Shown here piece by piece: positions 25,920 to 46,551 of a stretch of DNA of 64,000 nucleotides. The DNA is from an uncultured Pseudomonadota bacterium (lineage in GTDB: Bacteria > Pseudomonadota > Gammaproteobacteria > Burkholderiales > SG8-39). Each line of letters begins with the position of its first letter. Positions within the stretch are counted from its first letter, which is position 1. Below the pieces are notes generated by a model, which saw only the letters and a list, made by a program, of their open reading frames with translations, was not told where the DNA came from and searched no databases. The position numbers and the translations under genes were made by a program. The DNA lies in the NCBI GenBank assembly GCA_963739205.1, contig CAVTZJ010000002.1, positions 576,192-640,191 on the forward strand. Reading direction: 5' to 3'.

Positions 25920-26365
25920 ATCGCGCGCCGGGGCGCCACGTATTCTATTCCGGAGCGCTCGATGGCTATGAGCGCGGGAAGCACGTCGCCGCGAACGATG
26001 GCGAGCGGCGCGACGATCGCGCCATCGGCGCATTGGACGTTGGTCGCTCCCCCGCAAAATCTCTGCTTCGCCAGGTCGATCGACACGGAAATCTGCTCGC
26101 CCCGCCTATTCGTCGTGAAGATCGGGATGAGGCAAGCGAGCGCAGCCGCCGCGATGTCCAGCGCGCAAGCATATTCGTGCGGGGACAGCAGTTCTTCGCA
26201 GGTGCGGCGCGTCTGGTGGAACGTAAAAGCTGCCGCCACGGAAAGCGGCACCAGGGACTCCTGGCTGCCGCTCCATATCTGCGCGACCTGCGCGCAGTCT
26301 TTGCGCAGGTCTACCACGGCCAGAAAAAAGACCCCGCCTGGGAAGGCGGGGTCGGATTCCCACAT
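25916..26365 (-). CDS. Hypothetical protein, translationally coupled to the downstream Crp/Fnr gene; true start uncertain
   Basis: High GC3 and protein-like composition from about 26300 downward. Stop overlaps the Crp ATG (ATGA). ATG 26365 has no SD, and codons 5-15 form a terminator-like hairpin. Confidence 0.45.
   Translation of the reverse strand: MWESDPAFPGGVFFLAVVDLRKDCAQVAQIWSGSQESLVPLSVAAAFTFHQTRRTCEELLSPHEYACALDIAAAALACLIPIFTTNRRGEQISVSIDLAKQRFCGGATNVQCADGAIVAPLAIVRGDVLPALIAIERSGIEYVAPRRAI
26324..26353 (-). terminator. Rho-independent terminator-like hairpin + U6
   Basis: On the minus strand: GACCCCGCC-TTCCCA-GGCGGGGTC followed by TTTTTT. Confidence 0.5.
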
Positions 26366-26455
26366 ACGCTATAAAGGGAGGGAGGAGGCACGTATGTAAG
26401 GGACAAACAGACAAAAAGCAGTGCGCGTTGATCCATCCAGAGCCTGTTTGCCGCA
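26324..26455 (-). ncRNA. Candidate small RNA or 5' leader (C/U-rich anti-SD-like tract + intrinsic terminator)
   Basis: Lower-GC intergenic stretch. CCUCCUCCCUCCCUUU (26373-26388) lies upstream of the terminator and downstream of the Crp-type palindrome. The 5' end is not defined. Confidence 0.3.
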
Positions 26456-26485
26456 TTAAGTTTCGCTCTTTCGCCTTCGCAGCTC

Positions 26486-26501
26486 TGTGCGCTAGCGCAC
26501 A
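26486..26501. promoter_or_regulatory. Crp/Fnr-type operator candidate
   Basis: Perfect 16-bp palindrome TGTGCGCTAGCGCACA (TGTG-N8-CACA) between the divergent Crp/Fnr paralogs. Confidence 0.5.
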
Positions 26502-26582
26502 CAATGAATATACTTTTCGCACCGTAAACCTGGTCATCCGGAACTCTGGAACGGTTCCGCGCCAGGGAATTCGAGGAGACCC

Positions 26583-27335
26583 ATGCCCGCGACCCCCGCC
26601 GCGACGCCGCCGCATCCTCCCGCCGGAAATCTTCTGCTCGCGGCGTTGCCCCCTCCGGACTATGAGCGCCTGCTGCCGCACCTGGAGCCCGTCGCGCTGC
26701 CGCTGGGATGGGCCCTCTACGAATCCAGCATCCGCATGGCGCACGTGTATTTCCCGACCGAGGGCATCGTTTCCCTGCTTTACGTGATGGAAAACGGCGC
26801 CTCCGCGGAGATCGCGGTGACCGGCAACGAGGGCGCGGTCGGAATTTCCCTGTTCATGGGAGGGGGAAGCACGCCGAGCCGCGCGGTCGTGCAGAGCGCC
26901 GGTCATGCCTACCGCCTCGGTGCGGAGATCCTGCGTCGGGAATTCGAACGCGGCGGGGATCTGCAGCACCTGCTGCTGCGCTACACCCAGGCGCTGATCA
27001 CGCAGATGGCGCAGACCGCGGTGTGCAATCGCCACCATACGGTGGAGCAGCAGCTGTGCCGCTGGCTCCTGCTGAGCCTTGACCGTCTGCCTGCCAACAA
27101 GATCCGCATGACCCAGGAGCTCATCGCGAACATGCTGGGCGTGCGGCGCGAGGGCGTCACCGAGGCGGCGGGACGCCTGCAGGACGCGGGACTGATTCAC
27201 TACCAGCGCGGCGAGATCACGGTGCTGGACCGGCCGAAACTGGAACGGCGGGTGTGCGAGTGCTACGCCGTCGTCAAACGCGAATCCGACCGTCTGCTCA
27301 CCTACGCGAACGGCCCGGGGAAGACACCGCCCTAA
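26583..27335 (+). CDS. Crp/Fnr family transcriptional regulator
   Basis: SD GAGGAG. VYFPTEGIVSLLY...AVTGNEGAVG. HTH TQELIANMLGVRREGVTEAAGRLQDAGLI. Confidence 0.85.
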   Translation: MPATPAATPPHPPAGNLLLAALPPPDYERLLPHLEPVALPLGWALYESSIRMAHVYFPTEGIVSLLYVMENGASAEIAVTGNEGAVGISLFMGGGSTPSRAVVQSAGHAYRLGAEILRREFERGGDLQHLLLRYTQALITQMAQTAVCNRHHTVEQQLCRWLLLSLDRLPANKIRMTQELIANMLGVRREGVTEAAGRLQDAGLIHYQRGEITVLDRPKLERRVCECYAVVKRESDRLLTYANGPGKTPP

Positions 27336-28786
27336 GGCGCCGACCTCGCGAGCACGCGCCCCGGCCGCGCGCCGGTGGATCTTGCCGTCGCGCCAGACGA
27401 GCTCGCCGTTGACGATCACGGCGTCGATGCCCTTCGCCGGCTGGATCGGACGCGCGAAGCTCGCCGCCTCGTCCACCGCGCCCGCGTCGAACACGGTGAT
27501 GTCGGCGGCGTAGCCTTCCTTCAGCACGCCGCGCCCGGCGAGGCCGAAGGTGCGCGCGGCGAGGCCGGTCATCTTGTGCACCGCCGTCTCGAGCGGAAAG
27601 AGCCCCAGGCCGCGCGCGTAGTGGCCGAGCACGCGCGGGAAAGTGCCCCACAGCCGCGGGTGCGGCGCCGCGTCGTGCGGCAGGCCGTCCGAGCCGATCA
27701 TCGTGCGCTCGAAGGCGAGGATGCGCTGCACGTCGGCCTCGTCCATCGAGAAGTAGATCGCGCCTGCCGGAAGGAGCTTTTCGATCGCCGCATCCACGCC
27801 GAGGCCCATCCTGCGCGCGATCTCGGCGAGCTCCATGCCGGCGAACTCGGGATGCGGCTTCGACCAGGTGACGAGCACCTTCGAGGCGACCCCGACGCGG
27901 CTCGCCGTGAGGATCGTCGAGGACGCGCAGTACGGATAGCAATCGAGGCCGATCTCCTGCTGCCGCGCATGCGCGCCTCGATGAGCGGCAGCGTTTCGGC
28001 GGAGCGGCCGTGATTGGGCAGGCCCATGACCTTGTGGTGCGAGATCACCACCGGCACGCCGAGCTCGCGTCCGATGCGGAAGGTCTCCTCGAGCGAATCG
28101 AGCACCTTGTCCGCTTCGTCGCGCATGTGCGTGCAGTAAAGGCCCTTGCGCGCGGCGAGCGGGCGGCACACCTCGATCACTTCTTCGGTGGGCGCCGCGG
28201 CGGCCGGCTCGTACCACAGCCCGGTCGAGATGCCGATCGCGCCGGCGGCGAGCGCTTCGTCGGCGAGCGCGCGCATGCGCGCGATCTCCGCGTCGCTCGC
28301 CGGCCGCTCGAAGCGGTCCATCGTCTGCGCGCGCAGCGAGGTGTGCCCGACGAGCAGCGCGCAGTTCGTTGCCGCCGGGCGCGCGCGCAGCTCCTCGACG
28401 TACGCGGCGAAGCTCGGGAAGCGGAACCAGCCGCCTTCGGCATCGAGCAGGTCGAGCGGCGGCGGCACGGGCCGCGGCATGCCGTTCGGCGCCGGCGCGA
28501 GCGACACGCCGCAGTTGCCGGCGACCACGGTGGTCACGCCCTGGCTCGCCTTGGGCGCCATGTCCGGCCCGGAAAGGAGCAGCCGGTCGTCGTGCGTGTG
28601 CGCGTCGATGAAGCCCGGCGCGACGATACGGCCCGAGGCGTCGAGCTCCCGCTCGGCGCGCGCCCCATCGAGCCGGCCGATCGCTGCGATGCGGCCATCC
28701 CTGACGGCGAGGTCGGCCGCGTAGCGCGGCGCGCGCGTGCCGTCGATCAGGATGCCGTTGCGGACGAGGAGGTCGTAGGGGGCCAT
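27332..28786 (-). pseudogene. N-acyl-D-amino-acid deacylase (D-aminoacylase), disrupted by two frameshifts
   Basis: N-terminal frame has GFIDAHTHDD and VISHHKV up to about 27975. The middle (GLDCYPY...MIGSDGLPH...) is in a second frame. The conserved tail GARPGRVLARSAP-stop returns to the first frame at about 27380. Confidence 0.8.
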
Positions 28787-37572: not shown

Positions 37573-37989
37573 ATGACCACCGAGATAATGTGGACCCCGG
37601 AAGGGGAGAACGAGACGGACCTGATTCCCGCCCACGTCACGCGGGTGATGAAAGTCGGCCGTGAATTGCGGATCTTCTTCTCGGGCAAGGAAGGTGAGTA
37701 CGGTGACAAGTTCGAAGGTGTACTAAGCATTCGGCTGCGCCTGGGTACCCAGAAGATCAAGGGCAATCAGAGCTACAAGCACGAGGATGACGAGTGGGAG
37801 CTCGTTCCCTACTCCGTTATCGGGCAATTCGATGACCGTCGATTTGAAACCTTCTCGGGAACCTGGACTGAACAGGGAACGCGTTGCCGGGTCGATGTCC
37901 TCGGACTTCCGCCAACGGTCAAACCAGCCGCAAAGAAAAAGAAAGCGGCCAAAGCGAGAAAATCGCGAAAGCGACGAGCCTCTAGGTGA
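37573..37989 (+). CDS. Hypothetical protein with Lys/Arg-rich tail (island border)
   Basis: Low-GC ORF with reasonable composition. C-terminal KPAAKKKKAAKARKSRKRRASR. Convergent 8-nt overlap with hsdR. Confidence 0.45.
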   Translation: MTTEIMWTPEGENETDLIPAHVTRVMKVGRELRIFFSGKEGEYGDKFEGVLSIRLRLGTQKIKGNQSYKHEDDEWELVPYSVIGQFDDRRFETFSGTWTEQGTRCRVDVLGLPPTVKPAAKKKKAAKARKSRKRRASR

Positions 37990-40900
37990 CCGCCTCGAAT
38001 ATGCTGCGACCGTCTCCGGCATACGCTTCGTAGACGTGCTCGAATAGGGCCTCGGTTTTCTTCGCGTACAGCTCCTTTGTATAGGCACGCGGCAACCCTT
38101 CATCCAGCGTGTCCTCGATGGTGATCCGCACCTTTGCCCGCGCCTGGACCTTCTGCCGCCAGCCGAGAACGAGCAGCGCGTGCAACCGCTCGAGCAGCTG
38201 GCGCGCCACCTTCTTGACTTCTTCGCGCTCTTCGCTGGACAGCTCCGGTCCCGGCCGGGTGAGGATATCGAAGACCGTGAGCTCCTCCTCCTTTAGATGC
38301 TCCCGGACGTGGCGCTCCTGCTCGTCGGTGAGCACCTTCGACAGCGCGACCAGGTCGCGGAAGATGTCCTCGATGTTGCGGCTTCCCGCGTTGTAGGCGT
38401 CGATCAAAGCCTGGAACTTGTCCAGGTAGTCGGCGCGCGTTCGGTTGAGCTGCACCATGCGCTCGACTTGAGCCCGCACCGCCGCTCGCAAGCGCTCGAG
38501 GTCGCTGTTTGTGGGCGCCTTCTTCTCGAAGCGCTTGGCCAAGGCCTCGAAGTCGATCTTCGACAGGTCGATCGTCGGGTAGGCACCCGACCGATCCTCG
38601 ATCTTGAATGGCTGTGCGCCGATCGAACGGTCGAGCAGCTCCTGGATTCCCTGCATGACGTGAGAGATGTCCGGCGGATCGCTCAAGTTGCGAATGTAGT
38701 CGGCGAGCGCGCGGATCGTCCCGCAGCGCACCGCGAACTCGACCGCCACCGCGTCGGGTTTGACGGCCTCGTACAGCGCCTCCACGAGCCGCGACCGGGA
38801 GACGAAATCGCGCCTCACCGACTCCGGCGCCAGAAGACGGTCGCCACCGTCCTTCACTGCTTGCGCCCGCTCGAACTTCTCCGCCGACGCTCCTTCGATC
38901 CTTGCGAGATCGACGCCGCGCGCCTTGCAAAAATTCGTCGCATCGGCCACCGCCAGCCGAAGCTCGGCCACCAGCGCCTTCTTGTCGCGCACCGGCCGCT
39001 CGCCACCGCGGCCCTTGCCGTAGATCGCCAGCGCGCGCTCGAGCGACGCGAACACGTTGGCGTAGTCGACGATCACGCCGCTGTGCTTGCCCGGGAACAC
39101 CCTGTTCGCGCGCGCGATGGTTTGCATCAGAGTGTGGTTGCGCATTGGCTTGTCGAGGTAGATCGTCGAGCAGCTCGGCGCGTCGAACCCGGTGAGCCAC
39201 ATCGCGCACAGGAACACGAGCCGCAGCGGGTCGTCCGGGTCCTTGAATTTCTCGTCGAGCGCCTGCTCGTTCATACGCTTCCGGTGCGGGACGATGTCCA
39301 GGCCGAGCCTCTTCATCTGCTCGACCTCGTTCTGGCCCGGCGAAACCACGACCGCCATGTCGGTCGAGTCCATCTTGGGCCAGAGCTTGCGCACCTTGTC
39401 GTACATGCGAAGGGCGGTCGCCTTGTCGATCGATACCACCATCGCCTTGCCCTGGAAGCCCCGCCCGGTGAAGTGACGCACGATGTCCTTCGCCACCGTG
39501 TCGAGCCGGTCGTCGCGCGTGATGAGGTGGTACTGGCGCGAGAGTTCCCTCTCCAGCCGCGCTTCCTGCTCCGGGTCGAGCTGCGCCGCCTCGACCAGGT
39601 CGTAGATCTCGTCGTTCAGGTCCGGGTTGTCGAGGTGCAGTTCGGGTGTACGGTTCTCGTAATAGAGCGGTACCGTGGCCCCGTCCTCGATCGACTGCTG
39701 GAAGTCGTAAATCGAGACGTAGTCCCCGAACACGTCCTTCGTCTTCTCCTCGCCCGCGATCAGCGGCGTGCCGGTGAAGGCGAGGAACAGCGCCTTCGGC
39801 ATCGCCGCGCGCATGTTCATCGCCAGCGTGTCGTACTGGCTGCGATGCGCCTCGTCGGTGAGCACGATCACGTCCGGCCGGTCGCACAGCACCTCTGGCG
39901 TCTGGAACTTCTGGATCAGCGTGAATACGTAGCGGTGGTTCTCGGAAAGAAGCTTGCGCAGCTCCGCCCCGCTCTGCGCGTGGCACACGTTACTCTCGGC
40001 CTCCGTCACCGCGCCGCAGGCCTTGAAGGTCTTGGCGATCTGGTCGTCCAGCTCCATCCGGTCGGTCACGACGACGAAGGTCCAGTTGCCCGGCACCTTG
40101 CGCAGGATCTTCTGCGCGAAGAACACCATCGAGAAGCTCTTGCCCTGACCCTTGCGTCTGCCAGAACACCCCGCCGCGGCCGTGGCCGCGCTTGCGCGCC
40201 TCGAGCGTCGCCGCGATGGCGTTGTTCACGCCGAGGTACTGGTGGTTCTGCGCCATCGCCTTCACCAGGCCGGACTTGTGCTCCGAGAAGAGCGTGAAGT
40301 TCTCCGCAATGTCCAGGAGACGCACGGGCGCGCAGGTGCCGCGCAGCATCACTTCCAGCGACACTCGACGCGGCTCGTCCTCGCGCTCGATCCGCTTCCA
40401 TTCGCCGAACCGCTCCCAGTCCGCCGTGATCGTCCCGATCCGGCTCTCCGTGCCGTTCGAGGCGATCAGGAACGCGCTGTACCAGAAGAGCTGCGGAATC
40501 CCGTTCTGCGGGTGCTTGTAGCTCGTCAGGTTCTCATCGAACGCCTGCCGCGCCGCCACCCCCGGCTTCTTCAGCTCGATCACCACCCACGGCAACCCGT
40601 TCACGAACCCGATCAGATCCGGCCGGCACGTATAGAGCTGCCCCGTGACCGTCATCTGCGAGACCAGCAGGAAATCGTTCGCGGCGGGATTCTCCCAATC
40701 CACCACCCGCACCCGCTCCTCCCTCAACCCGCCCCGCTCCGGGTCCGGCACCGAAACCTTCACGCCGTCCTTCAGCAGCCCGCAGATCTCCCGATTCGCG
40801 CCGGCAAGCGTCATCGCCGACCGGTCACGCGTCAGCTCGTCCAAGGCACTGGCGATCGCTTCAGGGGGAAACTTCGGATTCAACTTCTCCAGAGCCGCCC

Positions 40901-41063
40901 GCAATCGCGGCACCAGCACTACTTCGCCCGATGTCTCTCGTCCGAGCGTGCCGCTCGGGCCGAACATCTCCTCCATCGCAGACAACGTTTGCCAACCCAG
41001 ATCCGCGAATAGACCGATGGCCGGCTGCTCGACAAGCTGATCTTCGGTGTAAGCGTGAGACAT
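37982..41063 (-). pseudogene. hsdR: Type I restriction enzyme R subunit, one frameshift inside Walker A
   Basis: The N-terminal ORF ends in GVFWQTQGSG, then goes out of frame. The C-terminal ORF starts at ...MVFFAQKILRKVPGNWTFVVVTDR, with DEAH box LTDEAHRSQ. Removing one nt near 40142 gives GSGKSFSMVFF. Confidence 0.9.
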
Positions 41064-41081
41064 TCTGGACCGACTGGGGCC

Positions 41082-42161
41082 TTATCTCTTCTTGGCAGCA
41101 CCACGCTTAGGACCGTGGGACGCCCAGACCTCTTCTTTAGGGTGTCTTTTCATAGCCTCTTCTATGACCGGGATTGCCTTTTGAGAATAGCGGTCGAACA
41201 GCGCCTTTCCGATGGAGATCCGCTTAAAACACTCACGGTCGTCCTGTAGTTTCAAAAACCGAATATAAGAAGTCGTCCCGGGTCCACTGAGCCCAACTTT
41301 TTGAGCGAGTTGGTCTCGACCGAGATTGTAGAAGCCAAGTTCGTCAACACGCTTCACGGCAACGACAGCTGCTCCTGGCGTACCCTCCGGGACGAGTTGC
41401 ACAGGTGTGCCCGTCTTTGTTATCCGCAGTTCGATCGACGGGCCGTAACCTTTAGTCGTGAGTGTGACAGTCGCGACTCCTGGGAAAATCTCATTCCACG
41501 CTTTCTTATCCGCAGCGATATCCGCGGCAAGCTTTTTTAACTCTCCTACTCCCGGCTGCACCTTCTCCCCACTCAGCGATTTCTCAATGATCGCAAGCGA
41601 CCGAAGCTTTGCCTCTGCTTCTGTATGCCGACGAGCACCCGGTGCCAACAGTTTCCTAATCTCTTTCGTCTCGTTGTCGAATAGTTTCGCCAGATCTGTT
41701 GGAGGGCTTGTGGAAAGTGGCAGAACGCGAACCGGAAGATGGGTTTGCAAGTCTTCGCCAAATACCGACTTGAAGACATCCCGAAACAGGCTTAGGCCCG
41801 CCTGGGACTGAATGTACAAGTGCTGTTCAGACATATCGAGAAGGTGATGTTGTGCAGCGTCTCTCAGACTGTTGATCATCTGAACTGTAAGCGCCTGGTT
41901 ATCCGTCAGGAACTTCACACTCGCGTCAGAAAGCCCTTTCCGAACAGACGCATCGAAACCAATAGTCTGTTTGGCTCGGGGCTCACGGATTCGTCCTCCT
42001 CGATGCAGGATCGCCGCCTTGAAGAGCATTTCAAATGCATGGTCAAGCGAAATGAGAACACTGTGTGTGCGCCCGGTATCGGAGGGGCGGTTGAAAAGCT
42101 CAACGCTCAGCATCAACGACTCAATCGCTTTCGTTCTTAGGAGCTTGACCTCCTTCTTCAC
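41082..42161 (-). CDS. Uncharacterised protein embedded in the R-M operon (DUF3644-like N-terminus, possible wHTH C-terminus)
   Basis: GTG overlaps the hsdS stop (GTGA) and the ORF ends 18 nt before hsdR. AIESLMLSVELFNRP...LISLDHAFEMLFKAAIL. Lowest-GC part of the window. Confidence 0.7.
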   Translation of the reverse strand: MKKEVKLLRTKAIESLMLSVELFNRPSDTGRTHSVLISLDHAFEMLFKAAILHRGGRIREPRAKQTIGFDASVRKGLSDASVKFLTDNQALTVQMINSLRDAAQHHLLDMSEQHLYIQSQAGLSLFRDVFKSVFGEDLQTHLPVRVLPLSTSPPTDLAKLFDNETKEIRKLLAPGARRHTEAEAKLRSLAIIEKSLSGEKVQPGVGELKKLAADIAADKKAWNEIFPGVATVTLTTKGYGPSIELRITKTGTPVQLVPEGTPGAAVVAVKRVDELGFYNLGRDQLAQKVGLSGPGTTSYIRFLKLQDDRECFKRISIGKALFDRYSQKAIPVIEEAMKRHPKEEVWASHGPKRGAAKKR

Positions 42162-43363
42162 GAATTGAGTTCCCGAAGTATCGCCCGTCCCGCTAGCATC
42201 CTCGGCAGCAGCAGGTCACGCGTCCGTCGGAGGTTTTGGATCTGAAAAATAAGGGTCTGTTGCTGCTCGATGGTCTCGGCGAACAGCGCAGAGAATTGCT
42301 CAACGACTTTGCCTTTCGGGATCACGACTTTGTATTTCTCCAACACGTCCCAGTTCGCGCGCGGCATCTTCGCTCCATTCGCGGTTGCGCTCGCTTCCGC
42401 AACGAATGCGTCGCTGGAGACGCACGCCACGACAAAGGCGTAATGCTCGGGGCGACGAGAACGTACGACGATGGTGTCGGCGGAGCATAGGCCGTCGAAC
42501 GGCGCGACGCTGACCTTGTGGAAATAAGGCCGAATCTTGCCGAACAGGACTTCACCTTTCTTGAACTCAAGTTTATTCGAGCCGAGGTTGGTCGCTGTTT
42601 CCCAAGCGTTAAGTGCGAGCGAGCGACGTGGGATGTGCTCGAGGCCGACGTATGGTTTTGGCTCGTCGAGGTCTCCCTTCGACACATTGCGGCGCGTGTT
42701 CTCAGCGATGTCGCCAAGCGTTTTCACTTCCCAGCCTTTGGGGATGTCGCCTAGGGGAGAGGCGACGCGCGGGAGCTTTTCGTGGCCGGGGAAGCGGAAA
42801 TGGACGAACCACTCGTGGTAAAGGGCGCGGGCCATTTCCTCCAAGATCCGAATGCGCCGCTGGTTGTTTTCGATCAACTCGTCATAGGCCGACAGTATTG
42901 CTGCAATGCGTTGCTGAACACCCCGAGGCGGCAGATCGGGAAGCGCTAGTTCCCGCACATCCTTCATGTTCAGGTGGGGCACCGTTACGCCATTTGTCTT
43001 GGCGTGGATGACTCGTTGCACCTGAGGACCATTCAGGAGGTAGTTCAGAAAGGACGGTTCAACCTTTGACCGATTAGGGCGAATCAGAAGGGTCCGCTGC
43101 CCAAGGCAGACCTTCAGCCCCTCAGGAACAATTGCCGCGTTGCCAACTGGCGCCTCGCGCGCCATGATGATGTCGCCCGGTCGAGGAACCGCGCGCTTTG
43201 TCCAGAGGCGGTAGGTGTCCTCCGATACTCGATTCACGCCGTCGAGGATGAAGAAGCCCCTTCCAATGTTCGGCGTACGGATCGATGGATAGCCTTCTGC
43301 CTGTGTTGGCGCAGTCTTATGCTCGCAGTCCACTATCATTTCGCTGATATCGGCGAGCCTCAT
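42158..43363 (-). CDS. hsdS: Type I restriction enzyme specificity subunit
   Basis: Two target-recognition domains separated by the conserved helix QQRIAAILSAYDELIENNQRRIRILEEMARALYHEWF. Distal repeat LIFQIQNLRRTRDLLLPRMLAG. Intact. Confidence 0.9.
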   Translation of the reverse strand: MRLADISEMIVDCEHKTAPTQAEGYPSIRTPNIGRGFFILDGVNRVSEDTYRLWTKRAVPRPGDIIMAREAPVGNAAIVPEGLKVCLGQRTLLIRPNRSKVEPSFLNYLLNGPQVQRVIHAKTNGVTVPHLNMKDVRELALPDLPPRGVQQRIAAILSAYDELIENNQRRIRILEEMARALYHEWFVHFRFPGHEKLPRVASPLGDIPKGWEVKTLGDIAENTRRNVSKGDLDEPKPYVGLEHIPRRSLALNAWETATNLGSNKLEFKKGEVLFGKIRPYFHKVSVAPFDGLCSADTIVVRSRRPEHYAFVVACVSSDAFVAEASATANGAKMPRANWDVLEKYKVVIPKGKVVEQFSALFAETIEQQQTLIFQIQNLRRTRDLLLPRMLAGRAILRELNS

Positions 43364-43366
43364 ACC

Positions 43367-44992
43367 CTACGCTTCGAGAATCTCTGCCACGTTGCCGGCA
43401 ATAGTCTCTTCGAGTTCGCGCGCTCGCGCGTTGAGCGCTTCGAGTTCCTCATTCAGCGTTTCGAGCTGTTCCTTGAAGTCTTCGTCGCTGACATCTTCGC
43501 CAGGCGCAACGCCGACGTAGCGGCCGGGGTTGAGCGACCACCCTTGGGCTTCGATCTTCTTTGAGTGTGGCGGCCTTGCACAGGCCAGCAACGTCGGCGT
43601 ATTTCGGTTTCTTGCCGAAGATTTCGACGAGCTTTGCGTTCGCTTCGTCGCCGCCGAGGGTGAAGTCGGGCTCTTCGCCGCGGTAGAGGCGCACGAGGTT
43701 GGCGAGGAAGCCGACCTGCGCTTCGGTCCAGTCGCGGTGGGCGCGGTCGATCTGGCGGTAGATGTGGCGGGCGTCGATGAAGAGGACTCGTGTCGGCGCG
43801 CGGGGTTTTCTTCTTGCCGCGGTCGAGGAACCACAGGGTGCAGGGCAGCGTGACGGTGTAGAACATGTTCGGGCCGACGGCGACGATCACGTCCACGGCG
43901 CGGGACTGGATGAGCTGCTTGCGGATTTCCAGTTCGGAGGCGCGGGCGTCGCTGGCGGAGTTGGCCATGACGAAGCCGGCGCGGCCTTTGTCGTTGAGCG
44001 AGGAGTAGAAGAGCTGGATCCAGAGGTAGTTGGCGTTGTCGGTGCGCGGCAGGCCGAAGGGGAAGCGGCGGCCCGGGCCGACGGCGTCCTTGAGGCGGTC
44101 CTTGTCCACGGCGTTGACGTTGAACGGCGGATTGGCGAGGACGAAGTCGAAGGCGCCGACGGCCTTGTGCGGGTCGTCGTAGTAGCTGTTGACCTCGCCG
44201 CCGTGGCGGATGTCGCCCTCCAGGCCGTGCACGGCGAGGTTCATGCGGCACAGGCGCCCGGTTTCGTCGGTCTTTTCGACGCCGAAGATGGAGAGCTCGG
44301 ACGCGGGGTTTTTCTTGTGCTCGGCGACGAAGCGCGCGGACTGGACGAACATGCCGCCTGAGCCGCAGGCGGGGTCGAGGATGCGGCCGTGGAAGGGTTC
44401 GAGGATCTCGACCATGCAGGCGCACGATGGGCGCCGGGGTGTAGAACTCGCCGCCCTTCTGCCCCTCGGTGCGGGCGAACTGGCCGAGGAAGTATTCGTA
44501 GATGCGCCCGAAGGCGTCGAAGTCGAGGCTGACGGGGATCTCGGAGACTTTCTTCAGCAGTTCCTTGAGCAGGGTGCCGTTGAAGATCTGGTAGTTGCGC
44601 GGCAGCACGCCCGCGAGCTGCGGGTTGTGCTTCTCGATGTCGGCCATCGCCTCGTTGACGGCCTTGCCGACGTTGCTGCCTTCGGGCCGCGCGAGCAGGT
44701 AGTCGAAGCGGGAGTTCGGCGTGAGGAAGAGGACGCCTTCGGCCTGGTAGGCCTTGGGGTCGTCGATGCGCGAGGTGCCGCGGCGCGCCGAGGTGCCCGC
44801 CTTCTCCAGTTGCGCGCGGCGCTGCGCGAAGCGCGCCTCGGCGAAGCGCAGGAAGATCAGGCCGAGGACCGGCCCGGAGTATTCGCCGGCCTTGAGGCCG
44901 GAGTTGGCGCGGAACTGGTCCGCCGCGGCCCAAAGGCGCTTCTCCAGCTGGTGGTTGGCTTCGTCTTTCTCGGTCGGCGCGACCCAGCGCAT
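43367..44992 (-). pseudogene. hsdM: Type I restriction enzyme methylase subunit with three 1-nt insertions
   Basis: HsdM_N and GGEFYTP are in frame [11 protein letters not shown] and NPPFN are in frame [11 protein letters not shown]... is in frame C. The tail [15 protein letters not shown] is back in frame A. Junctions lie near 44416, 43788 and 43556. Confidence 0.9.
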
Positions 44993-45028
44993 GTCCTCTC
45001 CCCGATATGGTTCGCAGCCGCAAAGATA

Positions 45029-45440
45029 GCGCAGCGGCGGTCAACCCGGGGCGCGCGGTCGGCGTTGTGTCGTCAGGAATGGGGACGAAAAGGACAATCG
45101 GACAAGCAATCGAGCCGCGCATCCTGATGCTGCGCGGCCAGCGGGTCATGCTGGATTCCGATCTCGCCAGGCTCTACGAAGTCGAGGTGAAGGCGCTGAA
45201 CCAGGCGGTAAGGCGCAACCCGGCACGCTTCCCTGCCGACTTCATGTTCCGGCTGACCAGGGAGGAGGCCGAACGTTCAAGGTCACAAACTGTGACCTTG
45301 AAAGGCGCGGGCGGGAGGGGACGCAACATCAAGTACCTGCCCTACGCGTTTACCGAGCAGGGTGTCGCGATGCTCTCCTCGGTGCTGAAAAGCGAACGGG
45401 CGGTCCAGGTGAACGCGGAGATCATGCGCGCCTTCGTGCG
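45029..45440 (+). repeat. Copy A of a 412-bp direct repeat (ORF6N gene plus leader)
   Basis: Colinear with 53645-54056. Shared leader GCGCAGCGGCGGTCAACCC...CGGCGTTGTGTC and a colinear 121-codon reading frame. Confidence 0.7.
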
Positions 45441-45492
45441 CCCGAGCGAGCGGCGCGTCAGCGCAGCGCCCGGTAGAGAAACGGCAAGCTGA
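45079..45492 (+). CDS. ORF6N (KilA-N-like) domain protein, C-terminally truncated copy
   Basis: [35 protein letters not shown]...[24 protein letters not shown]. Homology to the paralog stops after ...MRAFVR. The tail is antisense to the esterase 3' end. Confidence 0.7.
45276..45302. repeat. Perfect 12-bp-arm inverted repeat inside ORF6N copy A
   Basis: TTCAAGGTCACA-AAC-TGTGACCTTGAA, 197 nt after the ATG. Confidence 0.8.
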
Positions 45493-46551
45493 CATCCATC
45501 CGGTAGTCGATGTCGGAGTGGTCGTCGTCGAATTCTTCGTAGCGGTGGCGGATGCCGGCCGCGGCGAGGCGCTGCGACAGCAGGCGCGTGCCGTAATGGA
45601 TGTGGTACTGGTCGCGCCAGCCGCAGTCGATGTAGATGCCGCGCAGCGACTTGAGGTTGGCGCGGTAGCGCGCGACGAGGTTGATCGGGTCGTGGCGGCG
45701 CCAGTTGCGCCAGCGCTCCTCGATCGCTTCGCCCGTTTCCGCGTTGAACGGGATGCGAAAGCCGTTCGGCGCGCGCGGATCGGGGTCGTAGGTGGCGGCC
45801 ATGCAGAGGTTCATGATGCAGTGGACTTCGCCGCCCGAGAGCTTCTCCTTCTTCCACACGTGCGCGAGGAAGCGCCTGATGCGGCCGTCGTCCAGACCCG
45901 GCTTCGAGTTTTCTGTTTGCCGGGAATTTCTGTGGGCCGGCTTTTCGCTTCGGCGCGCGGTACTTGGCGATCTCGTTCAGCGTGTTCGGCCAGTCGTGCC
46001 AGTAGACGAAGTCGAAGTACGCGTCGCCCGAGTGGTCGGCGATCGCGCCCCAGTACTGCGGCGTACTTCATGCCGTGGATGATCGCGCCGTAGCCGCCGG
46101 ATGACTTGCCGAAGCAGCCGCGGTGCTCCCGGCCCGCGAGGGTGCGGAATTCGCCGTCGACGAAGGGGATGATCTCGCGCGTGAGGTAGTCGGCGTAGTC
46201 GCCGATCGCGGAGGAGTTGACGTACTGGTTGCCGCCGAGCGCGGTGAAGCAGTCCGGGAAGACGATGATCGCGGGCCCCATCTTCTGCTCGTGCATGAGT
46301 CGCGCGGCGCGCTCGGGGACGTTGTCGCCGAAGGGCTTCCAGTTGGCGTGCGCGAGCCCCGAGCCGGTGAAGCCGACGAGGTCGTAGAGCACCGGGTAGC
46401 GCTGCGAGCGGCGCGCGTCGTACTGCGGCGGCAGCCACACGCCGAGCTTTCGCACGTGCGGGTCGCCGAGCGGGTTGCCCTTGAGAATTCTCGATTCGTG
46501 CTCGAGCACGACCAGCGTGCCCGGCGAACCCTTGGCGCGCTTCAGTGCCAT
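45458..46551 (-). pseudogene. Esterase (PF00756-type alpha/beta hydrolase), two frameshifts
   Basis: N-terminal frame runs to ...GKSSGGYGAIIHGMKY. YWGAIADHSGDAYFDFVYWHDWPNTLNEIAKY is in a second frame. GLDDGRIRRFLAHVWKKEKLSGG...DCGWRDQYHIHYG is in a third. Junctions lie near 46057 and 45895. Confidence 0.8.

Follow-up and report, generated by a model that had tools for sequence, protein, structure and literature searches.

DUF3644 proteins, the family to which the product of the gene analyzed here belongs, were classed by Anantharaman et al. in 2013 as a new HEPN family termed 'EC042_2821', in which the motif is conserved and whose members are fused to winged helix-turn-helix (wHTH), restriction endonuclease (REase) or zinc ribbon (ZnR) domains and occur in restriction-modification (R-M) operons (PMC3710099). 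The gene in question, gene X, is the one that separates hsdS from hsdR in a type I R-M operon within a stretch of 64,000 nucleotides from an uncultured Pseudomonadota bacterium (contig CAVTZJ010000002.1), which we refer to as the window. X is a real and well conserved gene that belongs to the described HEPN EC042_2821/DUF3644 family and to the phage defense candidate PDC-S19, and its product is most likely an R-M-embedded HEPN RNase defense effector that acts autonomously, without the need for contact with the Hsd proteins.

Several described systems provide the frame for this comparison. The phage defense candidates (PDCs) are a set of 145 untested candidates, now part of PADLOC, that were drawn from the genes found inside BREX, DISARM and type I R-M systems (Payne et al. 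2024, bioRxiv 10.1101/2024.01.29.577857). HEC-08 (Hma-embedded candidate 08), which combines DUF3644 with zinc fingers, is an anti-phage protein whose motif histidine is essential (bioRxiv 10.1101/2024.01.29.577857). The nuclease domain of PrrC constitutes a HEPN family found in R-M operons (PMC3710099), and PrrC occurs almost exclusively in type I systems (bioRxiv 10.1101/2024.01.29.577857). Ishtar (ist1/ist2) from Acinetobacter baumannii comprises two standalone proteins with an N-terminal HEPN domain (DUF4145 or DUF3644) and an uncharacterized C-terminal domain of 5–7 strands and 3 helices; it clears the plasmid RP4 with little loss of viability, and its genes are found within the remains of an integron or flanked by core genes (bioRxiv 10.64898/2026.07.06.735840).

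Family Assignment and HEPN Motif of Gene X

DUF3644 (PF12358) is the sole Pfam model that matches X: The match covers residues 10–165 and scores 51.3 bits against a cut-off of 27.6 (E 1.4e-13), in keeping with the remark in an earlier reading of the bare DNA letters (the sequence-only reading) that the N-terminus looks like DUF3644. The same reading had labeled X uncharacterized in the sense of unknown, a label that has to be given up, since the family was described in 2013 as HEPN in R-M operons and PADLOC lists PDC-S19. A check of the suspected defense role with PADLOC (label taken from PADLOC-DB 2.0.0) identified X as the phage defense candidate PDC-S19. Model PDLC04951 aligns residues 1–351 of X with positions 1–351 of its 357 positions (489 bits, E 1.8e-147), and a second full-length model, PDLC04947, matches with E 4.7e-94. 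For the remaining five of the seven PDC-S19 models the match is confined to the N-terminal ~55–166 residues of X, which fits a conserved effector joined to a variable C-terminal half. No PADLOC model other than those of PDC-S19 and no NCBIfam model matched X, and a sequence search of the PDB returned nothing, neither with X alone nor with a 57-sequence profile. Judged by these profile comparisons, X is a member of PDC-S19 from which no sequence-level difference sets it apart, PDC-S19 itself being a bioinformatic candidate. The supplements of Payne et al. contain no mention of PDC-S19, DUF3644 or PF12358, and the exact sequence of X is absent from a collection of 15 billion proteins.

The motif typical of catalytic HEPN domains is present in X as R100-x4-H105, embedded in the context ...NSL-R100-D-A-A-Q-H105-H... 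(LRDAAQH). R100, D101 and H105 are invariant among 36 close homologs (alignment A1, 61–80% identity). Among 57 distant homologs (alignment A5, 29–57% identity), the only residues of the whole protein that remain invariant are N24, R31, E44, K48, R100 and H105, and all six are located within the N-terminal domain. Two statements of the sequence-only reading are overturned by this conservation, namely that X has no HEPN Rx4-6H motif and that it is devoid of any recognizable catalytic motif. Two of its other statements on motifs are borne out: No P-loop was found, as neither GxxxxGK[ST] was seen by inspection nor an ATPase match reported by Pfam or NCBIfam, and the invariant residues do not form a D...(D/E)xK pattern either, which agrees with the absence of PD-(D/E)xK.

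Predicted Domain Architecture

An AlphaFold2 (AF2) model of X with a mean predicted local distance difference test (pLDDT) of 82 and a predicted TM score (pTM) of 0.64 places a helical bundle at the N-terminus (pLDDT ~85–97), which is followed by a low-confidence linker (domain borders are given in Table 1). In a Foldseek search against the PDB, the best domain-sized matches of X were HEPN proteins: 2hsb (AF_0298; probability 1.00, TM-target 0.78), SO_3166 (5yep_B; probability 0.97, TM-target 0.69) and the HepT toxin 7bxo_G. The HEPN matches overall had TM-target values of 0.67–0.78, probabilities of 0.97–1.00 and E-values of 0.15–0.8, and they were lost once residues 1–156 were removed in a separate model of residues 157–359 (pLDDT 80). 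This shorter model matched winged-helix proteins only, namely MarR, ArsR/SmtB, ScpB, TubR, AspA and a partition protein, over 59–72 aligned columns and with E-values of 0.3–2. The respective part of X, modeled with a pLDDT of 90–95, consists of a helix-turn-helix and a beta-hairpin wing, and the earlier assignment of the C-terminal ~90 residues to a winged helix is supported by both results. The middle helical region (residues 157–230) gave no fold match. X appears to combine an N-terminal HEPN helical bundle with a C-terminal winged helix, the matches being individually weak and their class consistent; because the Foldseek E-values are weak, these fold calls rest on the consistent match classes together with the motif.

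The β-hairpin that follows the middle region leads into a loop of residues 250–273 (41343–41414, minus strand; TGTPVQLVPEGTPGAAVVAVKRVDE), which ranks among the best-conserved stretches in close homologs. P253, V257, E259, G260 and A264 are invariant in these homologs, yet the loop has a pLDDT below 50 in both AF2 models; it may be a partner-binding or a substrate-binding segment.

Other assignments were considered and discarded. An REase fold of the C-terminal half, to which the EC042_2821_CTD of Anantharaman et al. had pointed, was rejected, as no REase is found among the 50 listed Foldseek matches and PD-(D/E)xK is not conserved, and a zinc finger was rejected in view of the single cysteine of X (C311). 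The N-terminal extensions of 125–145 residues in three homologs (P0160, P0181, P0230) were not accepted as fusions: Pfam recognizes no additional domain in them, and they probably result from wrongly called starts. A Foldseek search of X against the BFVD viral structures yielded only small HTH, Cox and excisionase matches with E ~1.

Comparison with Described HEPN Systems

With the EC042_2821/DUF3644 family X shares the Rx4-6H motif, the fusion to a wHTH and the setting in an R-M operon. The EC042_2821 type protein, however, ends in a domain of the REase fold, and some members have a wHTH at the N-terminus, whereas X has a C-terminal wHTH and no REase signature. The family, its HEPN nature and its embedding in R-M operons are already in the literature, and X opens no new category. 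HEC-08 has in common with X the N-terminal DUF3644 HEPN domain, the PDB relative SO_3166 (5YEP) and the embedding in a multi-gene defense system, but it carries C-terminal zinc-finger or zinc-ribbon-like domains, whereas X has one cysteine and a C-terminal half made up of helices and the wHTH. The HepT/MntA toxins (SO_3166; 5YEP, 7BXO) represent the best structural match of the N-terminal domain of X (TM-target 0.67–0.70) and likewise possess Rx4H. HepT is a standalone protein of ~130 residues that is neutralized by an MNT nucleotidyltransferase antitoxin, in contrast to the 359-residue multidomain protein X. Sequence-level similarity between X and HepT proteins was not found, and no MNT antitoxin gene is present in the operon of X, whose neighbors are hsdS and hsdR with no room for a further open reading frame (ORF).

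The likeness to Ishtar, judged from its description, comprises a single protein with an N-terminal HEPN domain, a C-terminal mixed α/β domain and a patchy horizontal distribution near defense genes. Set against the Ishtar layout, the C-terminal part of X contains four confident strands (~7 with the low-confidence loop), three to four helices and an extra three-helix region. It is conceivable from this likeness that the HEPN RNase of X is directed mainly at incoming conjugative plasmids, hitting for instance the replication primer or transfer transcripts and thereby causing plasmid loss rather than abortive infection by phage. The combination of an N-terminal HEPN and a C-terminal domain in Ishtar, which clears RP4 (10.64898/2026.07.06.735840), argues for such a role, as do the strands and helices of X, and plasmids too are restriction targets. 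Ishtar genes, however, are standalone and outside R-M, whereas X is R-M-embedded; moreover, the PADLOC lists of Ishtar-carrying A. baumannii strains contain no call of PDC-S19 or HEC-08, and because these lists lack PDC-S19 Ishtar is probably a different subfamily from X. We consider an anti-plasmid function of this kind rather improbable.

Distribution and Genomic Contexts of Homologs

The X family is large: With a threshold of E<=1e-3, 3115 of the scored candidates count as members, and clustering at 50% identity gives 827 groups, most of which share the same architecture of ~350–370 residues. The genomic context was surveyed for 80 homologous loci on contigs from one genome per species, and their arrangement was typed by tblastn with the Hsd proteins of the window. 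The loci originate from Verrucomicrobiota, Planctomycetota, Acidobacteriota, Bacteroidota, Myxococcota, Nitrospirota, Chloroflexota, Actinomycetota, Thermus and Pseudomonadota, and one is archaeal (Thermoplasmatales). Across these ~ten phyla and the one archaeon the identity to X amounts to 54–79%, and such values over hosts so distant point to horizontal spread with strong constraint. The archaeal homolog, which stems from a metagenome-assembled genome (Thermoplasmatales archaeon JdFR-43), is 60% identical to X and arranged as hsdS-X-(cargo)-hsdR; either the gene has crossed between domains or the contig is a contaminant introduced by binning. Phage genomes are practically devoid of the family, with one marginal partial match, so that X is not a phage gene.

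This survey, for which the sequence-only reading had called, places 46 of the 80 loci in type I R-M systems. The order hsdS-X-hsdR is direct in 13 of them, as in the window, and interrupted by 1–7 kb of further cargo between X and hsdR in 17; three loci have X-hsdR, one has hsdS-X and 12 contain type I genes in another arrangement. The remaining loci (34/80) display no similarity to the Hsd proteins of the window. A recurrent linkage to R-M genes and the conservation of the reading frame are both clearly evident from these data. X resides within a type I R-M operon, on the same strand as the hsd genes, which corresponds to the embedding by which the PDCs were selected, and the same is true of at least 30 of the 80 related loci.

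Annotation of the adjoining ORFs with Pfam gave a similar picture. The immediate upstream ORF is a Methylase_S protein in 31 of 75 cases, followed by ResIII, N6_N4_Mtase, DEAD, N6_Mtase, Eco57I, AbiEii, AIPR and GmrSD_N; downstream ORFs belong to HSDR_N (13), SWI2_SNF2 (9), SLFN_AlbA_2 (7), Abi_C (3) and GmrSD_N (2). When ten loci dissimilar to the window's Hsd proteins were inspected individually, four contained a type III-like methylase of ~690 residues, two contained helicases, and one each contained another HsdR, DUF499 with HEPN_Swt1, AIPR, and HD with a methylase. At the Bacteroidota loci L008, L010, L014 and L015 the start of the X homolog overlaps the stop of a ~690-residue N6_N4_Mtase gene (type III-like Mod), located where the window has hsdS, by 4 nt, which indicates that the X cassette is wired into a different R-M class there. 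Two homologs reside on plasmids: One from Xanthomonas, 32% identical, adjoins a dcm/Eco29kI type II system, and one from Azospirillum is surrounded by hypothetical genes, an integrase gene being close by. The homologs are overwhelmingly located within or beside R-M and defense genes. Tight coupling to the upstream gene, whichever that may be, is a family trait: Of 68 loci, 29 show a 4-nt overlap between the start of the X homolog and the preceding stop codon, and in 54 the two are no more than 30 nt apart.

Proposed Mechanism

By analogy with the systems described above, we think it probable that X is a HEPN RNase that stays latent until its variable C-terminal half detects an infection or a foreign element, and that the ensuing cleavage of RNA leads to a defense outcome. 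As in other HEPN defense proteins, the Rx4H residues would make up an RNase site that needs no metal ion and is likely shared by the subunits of a dimer; as long as the cell is not infected, this site would be kept silent. Sensing or regulation would be the task of the variable C-terminal module, which would recognize invader-derived nucleic acid or protein. Activated X would then cut host RNA, invader RNA or both, with tRNA, mRNA or a replication primer as possible targets, and the infection would be aborted, growth halted or the element lost, as a second line of defense behind restriction. If X is an active RNase effector, the window contains one more example of the increasingly evident rule that R-M operons hold a second, RNA-targeting layer of immunity between hsdS and hsdR. 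The PDC-S19 subfamily is widespread and, with 54–79% identity across phyla, unusually conserved, so that the function of a single member, cloned along with R100A/H105A controls, would annotate thousands of genes.

Several points weigh against this mechanism. RNase activity, dimerization, target and trigger of X are all features that we infer, and no cognate antitoxin or inhibitor is visible for X. The Foldseek E-values are weak for the HEPN domain and the wHTH alike. Hsd proteins similar to those of the window were not found in ~42% of the loci, which makes linkage to R-M common but not obligatory. Our literature search found no paper that names PDC-S19, which is also absent from a study testing eight other PDCs. 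Moreover, the wHTH of X could mean DNA binding and regulation, and non-catalytic regulatory HEPN families such as MtlR are known (PMC3710099).

The last of these points also support a different view of X, as a non-catalytic regulator that either controls the R-M system by binding DNA, analogous to a C-protein, or binds RNA by means of a HEPN scaffold. The winged helix with its matches to MarR and ArsR-type repressors and the location of X in the middle of the operon agree with this view, whereas the invariance of R100, H105 and four more polar HEPN residues down to 29% identity is typical of an active site, and X is found behind many unrelated operons. Additionally, controller proteins are small and usually encoded upstream of the genes they control. 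A regulator without catalysis is very unlikely on this basis.

Coupling to hsdS and hsdR in the Window

The four genes hsdM-hsdS-X-hsdR of the window all lie on the minus strand, and Pfam confirms the identity of the flanking genes; the prrC-type slot that the sequence-only reading had assigned to X holds. The frame of hsdS terminates with ...AAT TCG TGA, and the GTG of X overlaps this TGA to form GTGA. The start call is backed by the homologs, all of which open with MKKE(V/A)K. At the other end the TAA stop codon of X is separated by a short spacer from the ATG of hsdR, and re-reading of both junctions (Table 1) reproduced the overlap and the spacing described earlier. A strong Shine-Dalgarno sequence was not seen by eye in this spacer, and no promoter- or terminator-like sites were found between hsdS, X and hsdR, the site counts around X being at chance level. 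X is operonically coupled, that is, co-transcribed and tightly coupled with hsdS and hsdR, and it is embedded cargo of a type I R-M operon in the prrC slot.

Table 1. Features of the hsd operon and of gene X in the window.
Feature	Coordinates	Strand	Description
gene X	41082..42161	-	359 aa, GTG start; HEPN (DUF3644) + winged-helix protein, PADLOC PDC-S19
GTGA, X start codon on hsdS stop codon	42158..42161	-	read from sequence
spacer from X stop (TAA) to hsdR ATG (41063)	41064..41081	-	18 nt
N-terminal HEPN domain (predicted)	41757..42161	-	residues 1-135; helices 3-23, 31-53, 69-78, 87-105, 112-134
Rx4H catalytic-type motif R100-D-A-A-Q-H105	41847..41864	-	AGA GAC GCT GCA CAA CAT
middle helical region (AF2)	41472..41693	-	residues 157-230, three long helices (157-217) and short ones
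beta hairpin and conserved loop	41343..41471	-	strands 232-237, 244-249; loop 250-273 (PVQLVPEGTPGA..VKRVDE)
winged helix-turn-helix and two C-terminal helices (predicted)	41112..41342	-	H282-289, H293-303, wing 312-317/320-325, helices 329-349
hsdS, intact	42158..43363	-	401 aa; Methylase_S x2 (Pfam); PADLOC Specificity_I E 1.4e-106
hsdM, three +1 frameshifts (near 44417, 43800, 43556)	43367..44992	-	HsdM_N + N6_Mtase
hsdR, one +1 frameshift (~40146)	37982..41063	-	HSDR_N + SWI2_SNF2 + T1R_D3-like + T1RH-like_C
ORF6N-domain gene, divergent from hsdM	45007..45492	+	Pfam ORF6N E 9.8e-33; PADLOC PDC-S05 E 2.5e-48

PrrC/RloC and X have in common the slot between hsdS and hsdR, a nuclease domain of the HEPN superfamily and the concept of a second line of defense. 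X might function in the manner of PrrC as a guard, which is latent on HsdM/HsdS, with or without HsdR, and is set free to act as an RNase once the enzyme is disabled by an anti-restriction factor of a phage; the trigger would be a Stp-like peptide or a DNA mimic of the Ocr/ArdA type, and the winged helix or the loop 250–273 would provide the contact or sensor. The prrC slot with its GTGA overlap and 18-nt spacer is compatible with such a guard, as are the HEPN nature of the PrrC nuclease domain in R-M operons (PMC3710099), the 30 of 80 loci in which X directly follows hsdS with hsdR downstream, and the 29 of 68 loci in which its start overlaps the stop of the upstream gene. The N-terminal ABC-ATPase domain that regulates PrrC/RloC, however, has no counterpart in X, for which no P-loop was seen and Pfam found only DUF3644. 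Moreover, PrrC is almost entirely confined to type I systems, whereas X also follows genes of type III-like and type II systems and genes outside R-M: It is equally coupled behind type III-like Mod, another HsdR, AIPR, DUF499/HEPN_Swt1 and helicases, the Hsd proteins of the window have no counterpart in 34 of the 80 loci, and the plasmid homologs stand alone or beside a type II R-M system. Finally, X is 54–60% conserved in comparison with ~30–45% for the surrounding Hsd proteins, which suggests that it hops between unrelated type I systems, a behavior with which a specific Hsd interface is hard to reconcile. We regard a guard that depends on the Hsd complex as unlikely, and an effector acting autonomously remains the preferred reading.

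Probable Recent Exchange of the hsdS-X Block

Among the 64 one-kb bins of the window, GC content is lowest at 41001–42000 (0.530), followed by hsdS with 0.570 at a background of ~0.70, which confirms the earlier observation that X lies in the lowest-GC stretch of the window. The trough is situated exactly over hsdS and X (0.50–0.61 vs 0.62–0.69 in hsdR). We compared positions 40500–43330 of the window with a syntenic metagenome contig (ENA ERZ25039463 contig_132743, hereafter L081), which represents the same chromosomal site with a CMD gene as flank and is ~92% identical at the nucleotide level overall. The identity reaches 99.7% in hsdS and 99.4% in X (6 nt and 2 amino acid differences). In hsdR it is ~97% over the first ~550 nt, then ~92%, and 68–83% further in, and the 3' end of hsdM is 85–90% identical. 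Because the block of near-identity and the GC trough coincide, these data indicate that the hsdS-X block was recently exchanged by recombination within conserved hsd genes.

The identity of 99.4–99.7% in hsdS-X vs 68–92% in hsdR and hsdM, which suggests a recent joint movement, also counts in favor of the guard discussed above. Moreover, a block of this identity within such flanks is a hint of cassette exchange between type I loci. One could imagine an ATPase-free analog of PrrC that monitors the restriction complex, or senses DNA-mimic anti-restriction proteins via its winged helix, and that moves with hsdS as a cassette of specificity and guard; we hold this to be doubtful, with little probability. 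The apparent joint swap of hsdS and X between two related genomes bears on how type I specificity changes while cargo is retained.

Frameshifts in the Island

The frameshifts were traced with the intact operon of locus L004 as a guide, whose HsdM changes frame three times when aligned to the window by tblastn. In hsdR the frame is shifted by one surplus G within the codons of the Walker A motif QGSGKS. The sequence-only reading had contrasted the intact genes X and hsdS with the frameshifted hsdM and hsdR. This contrast is literally true and nevertheless misleading, as neighboring genes outside the R-M system are frameshifted too: An esterase-like gene (45458–46551) contains two shifts (~46060 and ~45900). 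A D-aminoacylase-like gene is split by one frameshift near 27970 (ORFs 27698–28786 and 26106–28217, minus strand; …IEARMRG / QEIGLDCYPY…), and a GC3 phase scan pointed to ~27970 as the only further frameshift candidate outside the island.

Each of the six shifts located at 38–46.6 kb is due to the insertion of one base, and all change the frame in the same direction, a pattern more suggestive of an assembly artifact than of decay. L081 is free of the window's extra bases at 43556 and 40146 and has indels of its own; these two shifts may be recent events or sequencing errors. Uniform sequencing error was rejected as a full explanation, given that six of the seven shifts cluster in 8.6 kb of the 64 kb. 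The cluster reflects either real decay or a local assembly problem. From six shifts over the ~5.8 kb of hsdR, hsdM and the esterase-like gene, ~1.7 are expected in the 2.3 kb of hsdS and X, and the probability of finding none is ~0.18. The earlier idea that the function of X has outlived restriction is not supported by these findings: Two of the four R-M shifts are absent from L081, non-R-M genes are hit, and the lack of shifts in hsdS and X is not statistically significant. This holds for real decay and for assembly error alike.

The same observations bear on the possibility that X is part of a decaying remnant, in which the whole island erodes and X is intact by chance. The six +1 frameshifts (three in hsdM, one in hsdR, two in the esterase-like gene) and the expectation of ~1.7 shifts in hsdS and X, with a probability of ~0.18 for none, are in line with it, whereas X is full length, differs from its L081 copy by only the few substitutions mentioned and has kept every family-invariant residue. 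The shifts that L081 does not share and the uniform direction of all six speak against erosion as well, and we consider a remnant highly improbable.

Neighboring Genes

In the window, an ORF of 138 residues (37573–37989, plus strand) without a Pfam or PADLOC match occupies the hsdR-distal edge of the island. The equivalent position in L081 (5810–7141) is occupied by a gene for a 443-residue HD/HD_assoc protein that matches the dGTPase defense model of PADLOC with E 7.3e-80. This edge looks like a variable defense slot beside the R-M operon. On the other side, the ORF6N-domain gene listed in Table 1 is short, encoding 161 residues that comprise the ORF6N part only; a member of PDC-S05, the candidate family to which PADLOC assigns it, has been reported to be protective in E. 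coli against T7, T5 and T4 (PMC12881386).

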